From the NCBI RefSeq assembly GCF_054482595.1, contig NZ_CM137008.1: DNA of 64,000 nt, one strand, 5' to 3'. Position 1 is the stretch's first letter. Each line of letters opens with the position of its first letter. Of the stretch, positions 10,379 to 39,652 are shown piece after piece. The notes under the pieces are model-generated. The model made no database searches, had not been told where the DNA came from, and saw nothing but the letters and a program-made list of their open reading frames with translations. The position numbers and the translations under genes were made by a program.

Positions 10379-13246
<2,868 letters not shown>

Positions 13247-28826: not shown

Positions 28827-29243
28827 ATCTACCCTGCTTGTACCATTATGTTATACACCTCTTTAGGAGTATTCATAAAACAAGGCGAATGTAAAGAACT
28901 GTATTGTTTTGTATAACAAGATGGTTGTCTAATCGCCAAAGAATATAAGCACCATCATTTCTCCCTATTTTTATATTAGAAGTGACATAGATTTGCAGGG
29001 TGATGCAGAGCTGACAATCACAGGTTTCCTTATCGGTTTTTGCATCGTACAACTCAAGCAATAAACCAGCTCCCATCATCATCAACATCCCGGCGAACAT
29101 GAATTTATTAGCCGGGCTCATAGCTGCATTCGCGTTTTAAGAATAATCCTCCTGCTGTCGCCGACTATGCTTAACGTTTAAAAAAGCATCAGCACTCTCG
29201 CAACGCACTCTTATTTTCCCCTTTAGAATACCGGAGGCCTGGT

Positions 29244-33090: not shown

Positions 33091-34047
33091 ATGTCATACC
33101 CGCTTTTTGACAAAGACGAACACTGGCATAAGCCAGAGCAGGCGTTTCTCACCGATGACCACCGGACCATTCTGCGCTTCGCCGTAGAGGCGCTAATGTC
33201 CGGTAAAGGAGCGGTGCTGGTGACGCTGGTGGAGATACGCGGCGGCGCGGCGCGCCCGCTCGGGGCGCAGATGGTGGTGCGCGAAGATGGTCGTTACTGC
33301 GGTTTTGTCTCTGGCGGCTGCGTGGAGGCCGCTGCCGCTTTTGAAGCGCTGGAGATGATGGGCTCAGGCTGCGAACGCGAAATTCGCTATGGCGAAGGTT
33401 CGCCGTGGTTTGACATCGTTCTGCCCTGCGGCGGTGGGATCACGCTGACGCTCCATAAACTACGCTCGGCACAGCCTCTGCTCGCCGTGCTGAACCGCCT
33501 GGAACAGAGAAAACCGGCGGGGCTGCGCTACGATCCGCAAGCACAATCGTTGGTGTGCCTGCCCACGCAAACCCGAACGGGCTGGAATCTCAATGGCTTT
33601 GAGGTGGGGTTCAGGCCATGCGTCAGGCTGATGATTTACGGACGTTCTCTTGAGGCGCAGGCAACCGCGAGTCTTGCAGCAGCCACAGGCTATGACAGCC
33701 ATATCTTCGATCTTTTTCCGGCCTCAGCCAGCGCTCAGATCGATACCGATACGGCGGTCATTTTGCTGTGCCATGATCTCAACCGAGAGCTGCCAGTGTT
33801 GCAGGCCGCGCGAGAGGCAAAACCCTTTTATCTCGGCGCATTGGGCAGCTATCGAACCCACACGTTACGTCTGCAAAAGCTCCACGAGCTGGGATGGTCC
33901 AGGGAGGAGACAGCGCAAATCCGGGCACCCGTCGGGATATTTCCCAAAGCCCGGGATGCGCATACTCTGGCACTCTCCGTGCTGGCAGAAGTCGCCTCTG
34001 TACGTCTCCATCAGGAGGAGGATTCATACCTGCCCCCGTCGTCCTGA
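33091..34047 (+). CDS. paoD: XdhC-like molybdenum-cofactor insertion chaperone PaoD
   Basis: 318-aa ORF downstream of paoC. Confidence 0.85.
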   Translation: MSYPLFDKDEHWHKPEQAFLTDDHRTILRFAVEALMSGKGAVLVTLVEIRGGAARPLGAQMVVREDGRYCGFVSGGCVEAAAAFEALEMMGSGCEREIRYGEGSPWFDIVLPCGGGITLTLHKLRSAQPLLAVLNRLEQRKPAGLRYDPQAQSLVCLPTQTRTGWNLNGFEVGFRPCVRLMIYGRSLEAQATASLAAATGYDSHIFDLFPASASAQIDTDTAVILLCHDLNRELPVLQAAREAKPFYLGALGSYRTHTLRLQKLHELGWSREETAQIRAPVGIFPKARDAHTLALSVLAEVASVRLHQEEDSYLPPSS

Positions 34048-34224
34048 TCCTTGCGGCCGGGCGTGGGAAGCGCTTTCTCACCTCCGGGGAAATACCATAA
34101 ATTAAGAGAAAAATCTGCAGTAGCCGTTTTAGAAAATCACCTAAATCGTTTAAAAGAGCGCCCTACCCATAGTGGGTGCTCATCGCCTTGTGTAACTTAT
34201 TCAGCAACGCGCGCCCTCGCCGGA

Positions 34225-35418
34225 CTAAAGCGCACCGGCCTTCTGGCGTGCGGTAACAAAGGTCAGTACGCCCGCGCAAAGGAGCAGCACACTACTCATG
34301 GCAAACGTACTCTGCCAGCCAAGGCGGTCAAACACGATGCCTCCTGCCGTTGATCCAAGGGCGATTGAGAGCTGAATCACCGCGACCATGAGACCGCCTC
34401 CGGCTTCGGCGTTGTCAGGCAACGTACGCGCAATCCATGTCCACCATCCGGTTGGCGCGGCGGTGGCCAGCATGCCCCAGAGTCCTAACAGCAGCGAGAC
34501 CGTCCAGACGTGATGCCCGGTAAGCATCAGACCGATGGCAATGACGGCCATCAGTCCGGGTATGGCCATCAGCGTGGGGTAGAATTTTCTGTTGAGAAAT
34601 GTCGAAACAACCAGCGTGCCAATAAAACCGGCCACGCCGATAATCAGCAAAATCAACGACAAGCCTAAGGAATTAACCCGTGTCACCGACTCCAGAAACG
34701 GGCGCACATAGGTGAATAGCGCAAACTGCCCCATGAAAAACAGGCCACAAGCTATCATGCCGACCACAACCATGCGGCGGCTAAATAAGCGGAATACCGC
34801 GCCACATGACGTGTGGCTTTTATTCGCATCCATGCTGGGCAGACTAATGCACTGCCAGATAAAGGCGACAACCGCCATGGGCACCAGGCACAAGAAAGCG
34901 CCTCGCCATCCGACCGTAGCCCCCAGATAGCTTCCCAGCGGCGCGGCCACGACCGTCGCCAGCGCATTACCGGCGTTGAAAATCGCCAGCGCACGCGTGA
35001 CCTGATGCTGCGGCACCAGACGAATCGCCGTTGCCGCTGACATAGACCAGAATCCGCCAATGGCCACACCAATCATCGCACGACCGACCATATACATCAG
35101 ATAACTGGTAGCCAGCGCAATAATAAGCCCCGATACGGCCATCAGAACCGTCATCCCCAGCAGCAGGAACTTACGATTCATCTTTCCAGCTAGCGTTGAA
35201 AGCGTCAGGCTGGTCAGAACCGCCAGCGCACCGGAGATAGCAATCCCCTGCCCTGCAAGCCCCTCCGTCACGCCTAAATCGCGGGTAATCGGCGTGAGCA
35301 GGCTGACGGGCATAAATTCAGAAGCAATCAGCACAAACACGCACAGGGTCATGGCAAAAATACCGCCCCAGTATGCGCGCTGATGATGAGGTGATAGTGT
35401 TTGGCTTAGTGTCGACAT
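34225..35418 (-). CDS. MFS transporter (12-TM)
   Basis: 397-aa ORF; highly hydrophobic, MFS-like loop motifs. Confidence 0.8.
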   Translation of the reverse strand: MSTLSQTLSPHHQRAYWGGIFAMTLCVFVLIASEFMPVSLLTPITRDLGVTEGLAGQGIAISGALAVLTSLTLSTLAGKMNRKFLLLGMTVLMAVSGLIIALATSYLMYMVGRAMIGVAIGGFWSMSAATAIRLVPQHQVTRALAIFNAGNALATVVAAPLGSYLGATVGWRGAFLCLVPMAVVAFIWQCISLPSMDANKSHTSCGAVFRLFSRRMVVVGMIACGLFFMGQFALFTYVRPFLESVTRVNSLGLSLILLIIGVAGFIGTLVVSTFLNRKFYPTLMAIPGLMAVIAIGLMLTGHHVWTVSLLLGLWGMLATAAPTGWWTWIARTLPDNAEAGGGLMVAVIQLSIALGSTAGGIVFDRLGWQSTFAMSSVLLLCAGVLTFVTARQKAGAL

Positions 35419-35493
35419 AGTGAAATTTCACAAAGATCAGGATAAAAGCCACCAGCCTATGGCCGGTGGCTTTGCATCAATTCAGGAGAGGTT

Positions 35494-36630
35494 TTATTTC
35501 AGTTTGGTCTGGAAAAATTGTTCGAACTTCGCGAAAGGTATTTTTCCGGCCACGTTATCGTACAGGTCCACGTGATTTGCCCCTGGTACCACCACCAACT
35601 CTTTGTCTTTACTGCCAACCGCCTTGTAAGCATCTTCAGCAAAATAGCGTGAATGCGCTTTCTCACCGGTCACAATCAGCGTCGGGATGGTGATTTCACT
35701 GGCGTATCTCAACAGCGGCATATTCATAAATGACAGCGGCATCGTTGCCGTCCACGCCCCGGTAGAGTTAACGGAACGTTCGTGGAAGCCGCGCGGCATG
35801 CGATAGTAGTCAAAGAACTCTTTCAGTACCGGATGAGGATTTGCCGGCAGCGTTTCTGGCAGAATGCGCTCGCCCGCACTGACCTTGCCGTTGCTGTCGA
35901 CATTAATATCATGACCACCGTGAGCAAACGTTCCGCTCTGCGCATCCTTCCAGCGCTGTTCATTCAGATATTGCAGAACAGCACGACGGTCGGCGGTAGA
36001 ATAACGGTCTTTGCCATCCCCCACACCATGACCCATCGCCCGGCTCATGTCATACATCACGCTGGTAGCTACCGCTTTAACGCGGGTATCCATCGCCACG
36101 TCGTTCAGCGCCATGCCGCCCCAGCCACAAATACCGAGCAGCCCGATACGGTTGCGGTCTACCTCTTTTTGCAGCCCTAAGAAATCCACCGCCGCGCTGA
36201 AATCTTCAGTGTTGATATCCGGTGAGGCGACGTTTCGCGGATAGCCGCCGCTTTCCCCGGTGTAAGAAGGATCGAACGCCAGGGTAACAAACCCTCGTTC
36301 CGCCAGCGTCTGCGCATACAGGCCGCTGGATTGCTCTTTCACCGCGCCAAATGGCCCACTGACCGCAATCGCCGCCAGCTTGCGATCGCCACGGTCTTTA
36401 GGCAGGTAAAGATCGCCCACTAAGGTGATGCCATATCGGTTCGGGAACGAGACTTTACGGTGATCGACTTTCTGGCTCTCGGCGAACGTTTTATCCCATT
36501 TATCTGTCATGGACACAGGGGCATTAGGATTGGTTGAATCAGCATAACTCATTGTCGTGACTCCACTTAATGATGCGAAAAGCAGCATGGTCGGCATCGC
36601 GGTTTTTAGCGTTCGGGTGAAGGCTTTCAT
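35494..36630 (-). CDS. Secreted alpha/beta hydrolase (dienelactone-hydrolase-like)
   Basis: ORF 35494..36651; signal peptide MKAFTRTLKTAMPTMLLFASLSGVTTMSYA; LGICGWGG nucleophile elbow; paralog of 15806..16726; 75 bp upstream of the MFS gene. Confidence 0.75.
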   Translation of the reverse strand: MKAFTRTLKTAMPTMLLFASLSGVTTMSYADSTNPNAPVSMTDKWDKTFAESQKVDHRKVSFPNRYGITLVGDLYLPKDRGDRKLAAIAVSGPFGAVKEQSSGLYAQTLAERGFVTLAFDPSYTGESGGYPRNVASPDINTEDFSAAVDFLGLQKEVDRNRIGLLGICGWGGMALNDVAMDTRVKAVATSVMYDMSRAMGHGVGDGKDRYSTADRRAVLQYLNEQRWKDAQSGTFAHGGHDINVDSNGKVSAGERILPETLPANPHPVLKEFFDYYRMPRGFHERSVNSTGAWTATMPLSFMNMPLLRYASEITIPTLIVTGEKAHSRYFAEDAYKAVGSKDKELVVVPGANHVDLYDNVAGKIPFAKFEQFFQTKLK

Positions 36631-36816
36631 AAAAATCCCCATAAAAAACAACAGAGAGATACAGGTTTCCGACGGACAACGCTGCGGTGCTTTACTTTGA
36701 TGGGGTCATTATAGTGAGCAGAATTAGTGCTGATTAGGGGGCGATTAATGCTAAGATTAATACCATATTGTTATAAATTAATGCGGAGATTGCCGGCATG
36801 AAGGGGGGATGTTTCA

Positions 36817-37701
36817 ATGGCGAAAAGGGAGAACTACAACGAGCTGTACCTGTTTATGCAGGTGGTGCGGGAAGGCAGCTTTACCGCAGCGGCTCAGCGG
36901 CTGGGTCTTGCTCAGTCAGGAGTCAGCCGTTCTGTTCGCGAGCTTGAAGAAAGGCTGGGTGTCCAGCTGCTAGTGCGCACCACGCGTAAACTGTCGCTGA
37001 CACAAGCAGGCGAGCAGCTCTACCAGAAGACGGCATCTGGATTTGAAATGTTAGATCTTGGGCTTGCCACACTGGCGCACTATCGAGAGACGCCCTCCGG
37101 CACGGTGCGTATCAATGCCAGCCAGCACGCGATTGATAAATGCCTGCTGCCAAAGCTGGCGGTATTTAAACAGCGATATCCTGATATCCGGCTTGAACTG
37201 ATAAATGAGAGCCGGTTCGTCGATATCATCGAGGAAAGATTCGATGCAGGTGTCCGCCTGGGGCCTGAAGTCGGCCAGGGTATGGTCGCGGTACGCATCA
37301 CGCCCGATATGGAGATGGCAATTGTGGGGACTCCGGAACATTTTCGTCGCTATGGTTTTCCGCAAACTCCGGCGGATTTAAAGGCGCATCCCTGTATCGC
37401 CTATCAGTTTGCCGACGGCAGCGTATACCAGTGGGAACTCAATCAGGATGATAAAAAAATCACTCATCGCCCTGAAGGACAATGGGCCCTATCCGACAGC
37501 TATATGGAAGCAGAAGCCGCCCGGCTGGGCCTCGGATTGGCCTATGTTCCTGTTGAACTGGTCGCGGATGATTTAGAACACGGTAAGCTTATCAGGGTGT
37601 TGCAGCGTTACAGCCTGCGAATGGAGGGATTGTTTCTCTATTACCCTCATCGCAACGTCTCCCCCGCCCTGCGGATGGTCATTGATACATTGAAAATCTG
37701 A
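36817..37701 (+). CDS. LysR-family transcriptional regulator
   Basis: 294-aa ORF divergent from the hydrolase-MFS pair; HTH FTAAAQRLGLAQSGVSRSVRELEERLGVQLLVRTTR. Confidence 0.85.
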   Translation: MAKRENYNELYLFMQVVREGSFTAAAQRLGLAQSGVSRSVRELEERLGVQLLVRTTRKLSLTQAGEQLYQKTASGFEMLDLGLATLAHYRETPSGTVRINASQHAIDKCLLPKLAVFKQRYPDIRLELINESRFVDIIEERFDAGVRLGPEVGQGMVAVRITPDMEMAIVGTPEHFRRYGFPQTPADLKAHPCIAYQFADGSVYQWELNQDDKKITHRPEGQWALSDSYMEAEAARLGLGLAYVPVELVADDLEHGKLIRVLQRYSLRMEGLFLYYPHRNVSPALRMVIDTLKI

Positions 37702-37926
37702 ACGTTAATAACGACCGACTCTTCACTGTGCAAAATTGTGTCAGGTAATCCCTCTGCGTTCAATTCCAGGGTCTGCTTTGAGCGAGAAAGATCAGACTTA
37801 TCTGTACAAGGGGACTATCCAGCAATGGAGATCATCCAAAAGAAAAAACCACCTGGCTCCCCTCGACAACCTTAATCCGGGCATTTAGCCTCAATCAACA
37901 TTTTCATATCTGTCAGGTTACTTCAT

Positions 37927-38200
37927 TATGAAAACCGATCAATATCGTTGTTTTTGTTGCAACAGTAGAATACGCGTATTTATCCCTCCATTTCTATTAA
38001 TAACGGCAATAAACTGTTCATTTCACTGATATTTAAAATATGCATCCTTTTCAAGCTGTTCAGCGGCATAAGAAAACGTATTAAATATGAATTCGACGAT
38101 TTAACCATTTCTGTCTGATTGGTAATCATCTGTGATTAATGCTGGTCTATTGATTACGCCAGCATTAACCGCTTAGGGATGTATTCTTCCTGTTGATATA
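37927..38200 (+). repeat. Degraded paralog of the ykgR-ykgM-ykgO locus
   Basis: 37940-38040 aligns to 18625-18725 (about 90% identity by eye); 38050-38085 resembles the last codons of ykgO; 38090-38200 resembles the terminator region 19450-19560; the ykgR-like frame is disrupted. Confidence 0.6.
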
Positions 38201-38403
38201 CAGCCCTCGAAAAAGAGAGAAAATAAAACTGTGTCCAATATTACTCTACCACTCCAGACCGAAGCATCGGTAGAATTAGCAGAACGACTGGTACAATAGA
38301 TTGGGATAGCGTCATTTGTCAGGTATTCCATTGCCTGACAAATGACAATTTTGAGTCAATAGACGTGCTTCTTGATCATGTCTTAAAAATTATACCATGA
38401 GCC

Positions 38404-38676
38404 TTATGAAGCATCATTTTTACTGACTGGTGTTAATTTTGCTATCATATAAACTCTGTTCTTAAAAAACGCGCCCAGAATTTTATATGATTTCCCTTGT
38501 TTTTCTGCCTGTAAAGAAATTTCTTTTTCAGTGCTGTCAATGGTTGAACCGACGGCAGTAATCGTTTTGGCGACGCTACTGAATGATAATAAAGACAGTG
38601 TAACAACAACAATTAAAGAACAGATAGTATTCACGCTAATTCTCCTGACAATTGAGAGGATGAGTTTTATATACAT
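38404..38676 (-). CDS. Small secreted DUF1471 (BhsA/YdgH-like) protein
   Basis: 90-aa ORF; hydrophobic signal segment then motif TIDSTEKEISLQAEKQGKSYKI typical of the family; compare rclB. Confidence 0.55.
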   Translation of the reverse strand: MYIKLILSIVRRISVNTICSLIVVVTLSLLSFSSVAKTITAVGSTIDSTEKEISLQAEKQGKSYKILGAFFKNRVYMIAKLTPVSKNDAS

Positions 38677-38846
38677 AGGTATTAAACATGAGTCATATTT
38701 ACCCCAAGAGAAAATACTCCTTCTGTAATTAAACCTTCATCTCCTTCGGGGTGAGCAATACATAATACATCTTGCTATGAAAACACAGGGATATATAAAT
38801 CTTCCTTCTGACCTATTTAATAAAACGTGAATGTAAAAATTATTCT

Positions 38847-39088
38847 TCAGTTTGCAGATGCAGTGGGTCTGATGGTAATTTCGGTTGTATCAACGCTTTC
38901 GGGAGATTCAATAATATGCCTTACAGCACGGGCAATATCCGCGGGTTGAAGTGCAACAGAACGGTAGGCGTCCATTGCCTTCATGGTTTCCACATGGGTA
39001 ATGGTTGAAGCCAGTTCACTTTCGACAACGCCAGGATTTACGCAGGTCACACGGATTTTCGAGCTTTCTTGCCGTAAGCCATCAGAAA
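38847..39088 (-). pseudogene. 3' fragment of a short-chain dehydrogenase/reductase gene
   Basis: Frame encodes only an SDR-like C-terminal tail (NPGVVESELA...TEITIRPTASAN); the N-terminal Rossmann part is absent and its position is occupied by the next fragment. Confidence 0.45.
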
Positions 39089-39091
39089 TAG

Positions 39092-39526
39092 CCCGTACTG
39101 CAAATCAGGCAGCGTGAAATGGTCGTTGCCTCTCCCTCCTATCTCGCAGCCAACAGCACACCTGTTCATCCGCGTGAACTTGTGAATCATAAGTGTATCG
39201 GCTGGCGTCAATCCCCGGATGTTGCGCCTTATCGCTGGCCATTTGAAGAAAACAGGAGAGCTTTCGACCTTGCGATTGAACCGCAGATTACGACTAATGA
39301 TCTGCGTCTGATGTTGAGGCTGGCTCTTGCCGGCGGAGGAATAACAATTGCCACTCAGGAAACTTTCAGGCCATATATTGAAAGCGGTAGGCTTGTATCT
39401 CTGCTTGATGACTTTCTTCCACAATTTCCGGGCTTCTATCTGTATTTCCCACAGCGTCGCAATATTGCACCAAAGCTCCGCGCCCTGATTGACCACGTCA
39501 AGGAATGGCGGCAGCAATTGGCTTAA
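39092..39526 (+). pseudogene. 3' fragment of a LysR-family regulator gene (effector domain only)
   Basis: Open frame from 39092; encodes MVVASPSYLA...FPGFYLYFPQRR (LysR C-terminal domain) with no HTH; abuts the SDR fragment head-to-head. Confidence 0.6.
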
Positions 39527-39652
39527 ATGTCTGCACCTGCATTGCCTGATGTCAGAACAGTATTTTGATTAATTGCCAGGGTTACAATGGCATAAATACG
39601 GCACAGGAGGAAACGTGGTGTATTTGAATATGGGGTAACTACTTGATTTAAA

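Follow-up and report, generated by a model that had tools for sequence, protein, structure and literature searches.

Organization of the region downstream of paoD

The window analysed here is a stretch of 64 kb of Escherichia coli DNA, of which positions 33600-34700 are 100% identical to strain XH990. In the RefSeq annotation of XH990 the genes follow each other in the order ykgJ, yagU, paoA, paoB, paoC and paoD, then an MFS transporter gene on the minus strand and, beyond it, an alpha/beta hydrolase gene (also minus strand), a LysR regulator gene, several gene fragments, tRNA-Thr and proA; the interval between paoD and the MFS gene carries no annotated feature. The final intact gene of paoABCD is paoD, which ends with a TGA codon at 34045-34047. 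Overlapping its last 22 nt is the start of a remnant of a MocA-like nucleotidyltransferase gene, and the putative ribosome-binding site and the former start codon of this remnant are both held within the 3' end of paoD. The features of the region are listed in Table 1.

Table 1. Features of the paoD-MFS interval and of the endpoints of the second deletion (window coordinates).
Feature	Position	Strand	Basis
paoD, XdhC-family molybdenum cofactor insertion chaperone	33091..34047	+	ORF list; XH990 RefSeq annotation
Shine-Dalgarno-like run AGGAGGAGGA	34013..34022	+	Read from sequence; 4 nt upstream of former start codon
Remnant, codons 1-27 of MocA-like nucleotidyltransferase gene	34026..34104	+	nhmmer, protein HMM, alignments
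Left CATAA pentamer, left endpoint of K-12/B-type deletion	34096..34100	+	L002 alignment
Junction of older ~7.1-kb deletion	34104..34105		Homology switch; 1 nt ambiguous (A34104)
Right-hand scar, last 20 nt of alpha/beta-hydrolase gene (...EKNLQ)	34104..34123	+	L094 alignment
Non-coding spacer, former 3' flank of hydrolase gene, then MFS 3' flank	34124..34224		blastn to L094
MFS transporter gene, first intact gene past the scar	34225..35352	-	XH990 RefSeq annotation
LysR substrate-binding-domain gene fragment	39107..39526	+	RefSeq annotation, translation
Right CATAA pentamer in the LysR-family fragment, right endpoint of K-12-type deletion	39188..39192	+	L002 alignment

At the start of the remnant (34026-34028) an ATG codon is found in the BL21-type strain C43, K-12 MG1655, four other E. 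coli strains, the metagenome-assembled genome L003 (whose PaoD is 89% identical to that of the window), Enterobacter oligotrophicus (L083) and a Salmonella enterica contig (L086), while the window strain reads ATA. The overlap with paoD is likewise 22 nt in L003 and L083. Embedded in paoD codons (HQEEDS), the Shine-Dalgarno-like run is kept in L003 and L083, where it precedes the ATG of the full-length gene, and also in K-12 and BL21; judged by its sequence and place, it would have the ribosome-binding function for the remnant. Besides the lost start codon, the window strain carries two 1-nt deletions, G5>G4 at 34086-34089 and C3>C2 at 34095-34096. The ORF at 33894..34100 (+) reads ...IPAPVVLILAAGRGKRFLTSGEIP, quoted as ...SGGGFIPAPVVLILAAGRGKRFLTSGEIP in the initial annotation, before the TAA at 34098-34100, and its frame ends ...SGEIP instead of ...SGGNTHKL because the two deletions shift it. 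When repaired by alignment with BL21, K-12, L003, L086 and L083, the reading is MPAPVVLILAAGRGKRFLTSGGNTHKL, and the last surviving codons, His-Lys-Leu, occupy 34096-34104. The initial annotation had thus correctly recognized a frame that carries the motif and runs into a stop, but had placed it immediately after the paoD stop, whereas it begins 22 nt before that stop, and had counted about 20 codons where 27 survive. With 27 of ~184 codons, disabling lesions and a residual ORF of variable length, 34026-34104 is a pseudogene remnant.

Homology of the remnant to full-length genes

A DNA profile of 19 full-length genes (nhmmer) aligned window positions 34027-34104 with gene positions 2-81 (E = 6.9e-16), the sole match in the 64-kb window. 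Using a protein HMM of 24 full-length orthologues, 34029-34091 was matched with E = 1.4e-7 in a local six-frame search and with E = 4.4e-5 when all 64 kb were translated in six frames, again as the sole significant match. In the closest full-length gene (L003 4936..5490), the first 81 nt share 87.7% DNA identity with E. coli and the remainder shows no match; at the protein level, the repaired peptide reaches 85-89% identity with the N-terminal ends of its nearest full-length counterparts. The HMM search that had been proposed as a check therefore succeeded with the model built from orthologues and failed with Pfam, where the repaired 27-aa peptide alone gave no NTP_transf_3 match at E<=1; the complete domain of ~160 residues is not there, the remnant comprising profile positions 1-27 only. 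Family membership of the remnant rests on its orthology to full-length genes. The orthologues have conserved central and C-terminal segments (...ILPADLP... and ...GHPV...), and neither the protein HMM nor the DNA profile revealed other parts of the gene in the 64-kb window.

The failure of the short peptide in Pfam is what would be expected if a Gly/Ala-rich, low-complexity stretch, read off-frame from the 3' region of paoD, resembled a MobA/MocA-type N-terminus by accident. This account, which the initial annotation had itself named as a possible refutation, is refuted by a DNA homology that lies at the identical position in relatives and by the identity of the repaired peptide to full-length N-termini, and we consider it extremely improbable.

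The intact gene in relatives

To place the remnant in context, one genome per bacterial species was scanned for PaoD relatives, which yielded 80 loci. A tblastn search with the remnant peptide gave a same-strand match right behind paoD in almost every enterobacterial locus; in these relatives the frame runs on for ~180-199 codons, and the gene overlaps or abuts paoD. According to an HMM scan the intact gene adjoins paoD in 31 of the 80 loci, including 26 of the 28 enterobacterial ones, the two loci without it next to paoD being from Erwinia. The proposal of a truncated 5' relic of a MobA/MocA-type gene beside the pao operon is borne out by these orthologues of 180-199 aa located directly after paoD. 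From the 22-nt overlap, translational coupling with paoD is suggested for the ancestral gene.

The 184-aa product of L003 4936..5490 matches Pfam PF12804 (NTP_transf_3) with E = 9.4e-26 and 91.3 bits, the cut-off being 27. Its best NCBIfam model is MocA/YgfJ (TIGR03310, 84.7 bits versus an equivalog cut-off of 186.45), followed by a DVU_1551-family model and PucB, and all its NCBIfam matches are below the respective equivalog cut-offs. Since its score falls short of the MocA/YgfJ cut-off and its identity with E. coli MocA is just 21% (115 aa aligned, E = 5e-4), we regard the intact orthologue as a MocA-related paralogue and not as MocA itself. Among public sequences, those with 82-98% identity to the L003 protein, including entries from S. 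enterica and E. oligotrophicus, bear the name 'nucleotidyltransferase family protein'; the name molybdenum cofactor cytidylyltransferase is given to a few less similar ones, and no Escherichia names occur among the best 120 public homologues. The best solved structure is not a close one (a Mycobacterium MobA/MocA-related protein, 2we9, E = 2.6e-4).

MocA (YgfJ, CTP:molybdopterin cytidylyltransferase, b2877) belongs to the same Pfam family, NTP_transf_3, as the intact orthologue, and the N-terminal Gly-rich loops can be aligned (LILAAGRGERF against IITAAGLSSRMG). The genomic settings differ, however: mocA lies beside yqeB/yqeC, the intact orthologue follows paoD, and of the copy in the window only the 27-codon stump is left. 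Residues that set nucleotide specificity were reportedly described by Neumann et al. in 2011. The molybdenum cofactor guanylyltransferase MobA shares this fold family and has an N-terminal nucleotide-binding loop of the LAGG/LAAG type, but its NCBIfam matches to the intact orthologue are confined to the N-terminal region and, with E = 1.8e-4 and 7.2e-4, are much weaker than those of MocA. It serves a different branch of cofactor synthesis, that of the bis-MGD enzymes.

The link of MocA to the pao operon is functional: PaoABC carries molybdopterin cytosine dinucleotide (MCD), which MocA makes and hands to PaoD (PMC3909100). Pairs of an xdhC-family gene and a mocA-like gene are known from Bacillus (pucA-pucB), Arthrobacter pAO1 and Oligotropha, the pair being part of a gene cluster for a xanthine-oxidase-family enzyme (PMC2997495). 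As a MocA-like gene adjoining a gene for an XdhC-family chaperone, the intact orthologue has the same arrangement as in these systems, which are nevertheless distant in sequence (the B. subtilis PucB model TIGR03202 is its third-best NCBIfam match, E = 1.3e-11, with 44.6 bits versus a cut-off of 235), and in E. coli the partner gene is destroyed. Based on sequence and gene context, the intact gene most likely encodes a pao-dedicated cytidylyltransferase forming the MCD that PaoD inserts into PaoC. With the same activity available from mocA (ygfJ) at its separate locus, E. coli could probably cope with the loss of the gene.

The junction at the end of the remnant

At 34104 the homology changes from the nucleotidyltransferase genes to the terminal part of the alpha/beta-hydrolase gene in L094, a genome carrying the label E. 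coli FDAARGOS_1373; this switch defines a junction at 34104|34105 with one ambiguous base. Window positions 34104-34203 are 97% identical to L094 12001-12100, where the hydrolase coding sequence ends at 12020. What is left of the hydrolase gene in the window includes its stop codon (TAG, 34121-34123), the gene body being deleted; a homologous hydrolase with the C-terminus ...FLKQKNLQ is present in L003. The origin of the 132-bp spacer was traced through a stray 32-nt match (H57) in L094, after blastn-short of 34095-34245 had given no match to any of the loci collected before. Within the spacer a degenerate hairpin (34156-34181), perfect in L094, has two mismatches in the window and folds no better than shuffled sequences (z = -1.25). 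Scans for promoters and terminators and an Rfam search of 33800-34400 returned nothing.

Two hints of a longer remnant were considered. The frame after His-Lys-Leu reads ...VLENHL..., similar to VLEHVL of the orthologues, and the window has the 9-mer GTTTTAGAA in common with L003 and L086, at an offset differing by 3 nt. An extension past 34104 was rejected: the matches of the protein HMM and the DNA profile both end at or before this position, and the stretch that follows is the 3' end and flank of the L094 hydrolase gene at 97% identity.

The extent of the missing segment can be read from the Salmonella contig L086, in which a truncated paoD is followed by the intact 184-aa gene, a hydrolase gene (minus strand), genes for a response regulator and a histidine kinase, cupin, CMD and flavodoxin genes, an alpha/beta-hydrolase gene, an MFS gene (minus strand) and a second hydrolase gene (minus strand). 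In this contig the alpha/beta-hydrolase gene lies ~7.1 kb downstream of the intact nucleotidyltransferase gene and the MFS gene 6.7 kb past it. The window aligns with L086 4819-5674 (92.7% identity); the alignment breaks off at 34104 and is taken up again from L086 12881 on, with the MFS gene, whose identity is 80.9%, so that about 5675-12775 of L086, or ~7.1 kb, is missing from the window.

A separate difference is seen in comparison with L094. Window 34195-37786 corresponds to L094 13819-17410 (94.9% identity), and the window is without ~1.7 kb (L094 12101-13818) containing a further MFS gene and an Lrp/AsnC regulator gene. This absence is located between the 3' flank of the hydrolase gene and the kept MFS gene, with 9 nt ambiguous at the join (34195-34203). 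The segment is likewise lacking in L086, and both insertion and deletion are possible.

Proposed origin of the stump

We conclude with high confidence that 34026-34104, with 27 of ~184 codons, is what a ~7.1-kb deletion left of a MobA/MocA-family nucleotidyltransferase gene: a 5' stump without function. The ancestral enterobacterial pao locus would have carried the gene after paoD with the 22-nt overlap. In the E. coli lineage, a single illegitimate deletion of ~7.1 kb would then have removed codons 28-184 together with about seven downstream genes (hydrolase, two-component system, cupin, CMD, flavodoxin and most of the alpha/beta hydrolase) and left codon 27 fused to the 20-nt remainder of the alpha/beta-hydrolase gene. 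Thereafter the stump would have drifted neutrally, the window strain losing the start codon and gaining two frameshifts. As no Escherichia with the intact arrangement was present among the genomes compared, this ancestral state is a reconstruction from other genera. Read in this manner, the stump explains why a fifth, MocA-like gene that is present in most relatives is missing from the pao operon of E. coli, which stops at paoD, and the reliance of E. coli PaoABC on the distant mocA would stem from gene loss and not from original design. The value of the finding lies in annotation and in the history of the locus; it is an ordinary relic of a gene of a known enzyme family and implies no new biology.

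The left flank of the junction is best matched by L003 and L086 and the right flank by L094, with identities of ~91-93% and 95-97%, respectively; given this difference, the junction could be the recombination boundary of an acquired segment. The stump would then be the edge of a horizontally acquired, already truncated paoABCD segment joined illegitimately to a backbone like that of FDAARGOS_1373, a genome in which the entire hydrolase/two-component/CMD/flavodoxin cluster is present and pao genes are absent from the place; moreover, the Salmonella copy adjoins integrase and conjugation genes. On the other hand, both relics flanking pao, the MFS gene fragment at 28990-29055 and the hydrolase end, fit the gene order of L083 and L086, so two deletions in a resident locus suffice. 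We consider acquisition unlikely. Whether by acquisition or by deletion in situ, the feature is a dead stump.

Distribution and decay in E. coli

Among 5426 complete E. coli genomes, the region of the remnant was found in 3597, of which 912 have the junction of the window; ~2,680 genomes match just to 34100 and then continue into the LysR substrate-binding-domain fragment. None of the 5426 contains more than 81 nt of the nucleotidyltransferase gene, which places the ~7.1-kb event before the sampled E. coli strains diversified. For these genomes and for the 64-kb window, it is also excluded that the gene is split and its other part located elsewhere. The triply damaged allele of the window is rare: over 34000-34135, no more than 22 records reach 99% identity. 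In five strains with the arrangement of the window, the residual ORFs have 24, 26, 35 and 49 codons; the four strains other than the window strain have kept the ATG, with ORFs of 26, 35, 35 and 49 codons. Such variable ends past codon 27 are the pattern expected of unconstrained sequence.

Some aspects of this distribution could speak for a stump retained for function, be it a short translated ORF with coupling to paoD or an element in the 3' region that acts on the pao mRNA or on the termination of PaoD translation: all E. coli genomes matching the paoD 3' end contain the 81 nt, the Shine-Dalgarno-like run and the ATG are kept in 6 of the 7 E. coli sequences compared, and the mRNA of yagP, the K-12 ORF described below, was reported to be up-regulated under carbon limitation (PMC6390033). 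However, the first 22 nt and the Shine-Dalgarno-like run lie inside paoD codons and are therefore constrained by paoD itself. In addition, the ORF ends variably past codon 27 (24, 26, 35, 49 or 136 codons in all arrangements), the window strain has neither start codon nor frame, and searches for an RNA family or a stable structure found none. A function of the stump thus appears very unlikely to us, and it probably evolves neutrally.

Beyond these genomes, ~1,830 of the 5426 have no match to the paoD 3' region. Some E. coli records match only to window position 33945 (e.g. H20), which suggests another disruption within paoD, and twelve matches to the paoD 3' region are on plasmids.

A second deletion and the origin of yagP

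The BL21-type sequence L002 aligns with window 33899-34100 and then with 39188-39589, the two segments sharing 5 nt. This K-12/B-type deletion of 5,092 bp between CATAA pentamers is absent from the window and occurs in about half of the E. coli genomes. It fuses ...GGNTHK in frame to CIGWRQ..., generating an ORF of 136 codons, which in K-12 MG1655 is the annotated coding sequence yagP (b0282) that starts 22 nt inside paoD. The last 110 codons of the LysR fragment of the window (39107..39526) are the C-terminal part of K-12 yagP, and the first 26 codons of yagP, annotated as 'putative LysR family substrate binding domain-containing protein', are the remnant with the same start position. In Pfam, the BL21 chimera matches LysR_substrate only (residues 25-131, E = 7.1e-15). 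Given this in-frame fusion, yagP is a chimera of two gene fragments; it is to be read as a product of two dead genes and not as a LysR-family protein with an odd N-terminus. Unlike the K-12 yagP locus, the window has no fusion, and the MFS, hydrolase and LysR genes in between are retained. In the literature on yagP and paoD, no description of the remnant or of the chimeric nature of yagP was found. In the proposed history, the chimeric ORF would have arisen by the second deletion after that of ~7.1 kb. Together with strain-specific frameshifts, the 7.1-kb and 5,092-bp deletions provide three discrete markers for lineage typing in the thrW-pao region.

The CATAA pentamer at 34096-34100 is only 4 nt from the older junction at 34104|34105, within one A/T-rich decamer. 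Two independent rearrangement endpoints in a single decamer may be due to chance or to a local hotspot.

A more far-reaching reading would combine two propositions: that the intact gene is a dedicated, MCD-forming 'PaoE' in most Enterobacteriaceae, with E. coli as the exception rewired to MocA, and that the ribosome-binding site and ATG of the remnant drive paoD-coupled translation of YagP, perhaps an active protein, in the ~2,700 K-12-type genomes. If both held, YagP would consist of a nucleotide-binding loop and a LysR effector domain and might have gained some activity. As a combination we rate this as rather improbable.

Further observations on the flanking regions

A second relic is located upstream of paoA. 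Window 28990-29055 (+, 66 nt) encodes residues 48-69 (95% identical) of the 398-aa MFS transporter that precedes paoA in L083, and window 29049-29393 matches the end of this MFS gene and the start of paoA; it follows that ~976 bp of the interior and the 5' end of the MFS gene were deleted. In XH990 a 'hypothetical protein' is annotated on the opposite strand across 28990-29055.

In L094 (NZ_CP069945.1, 'E. coli' FDAARGOS_1373, 1-24032) the full hydrolase/two-component/cupin/CMD/flavodoxin cluster is found, with a nitroreductase gene at the place of the pao-nucleotidyltransferase genes and no megablast match to the paoD 3' end. The sequence is ~95% identical to the window over the common MFS-hydrolase-LysR genes, and FDAARGOS_1373 may represent a divergent lineage or a mislabelled species. 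In S. enterica GCA_011508625.1 (L086/L087, 1-5615), where paoD is 5'-truncated and the nucleotidyltransferase gene intact, paoD abuts genes for an integrase, an S24 peptidase, a UvrD-like helicase and a TraI-like relaxase; with such neighbours, an integrative conjugative element appears to have cut into the pao operon.

Finally, the window between the LysR regulator gene and tRNA-Thr (~37930-39530) contains a run of fragments annotated in XH990 by RefSeq: ykgR without its N-terminus, an SDR oxidoreductase fragment and, head to head with it, the LysR substrate-binding fragment. This run suggests repeated rearrangement beside the thrW integration site.
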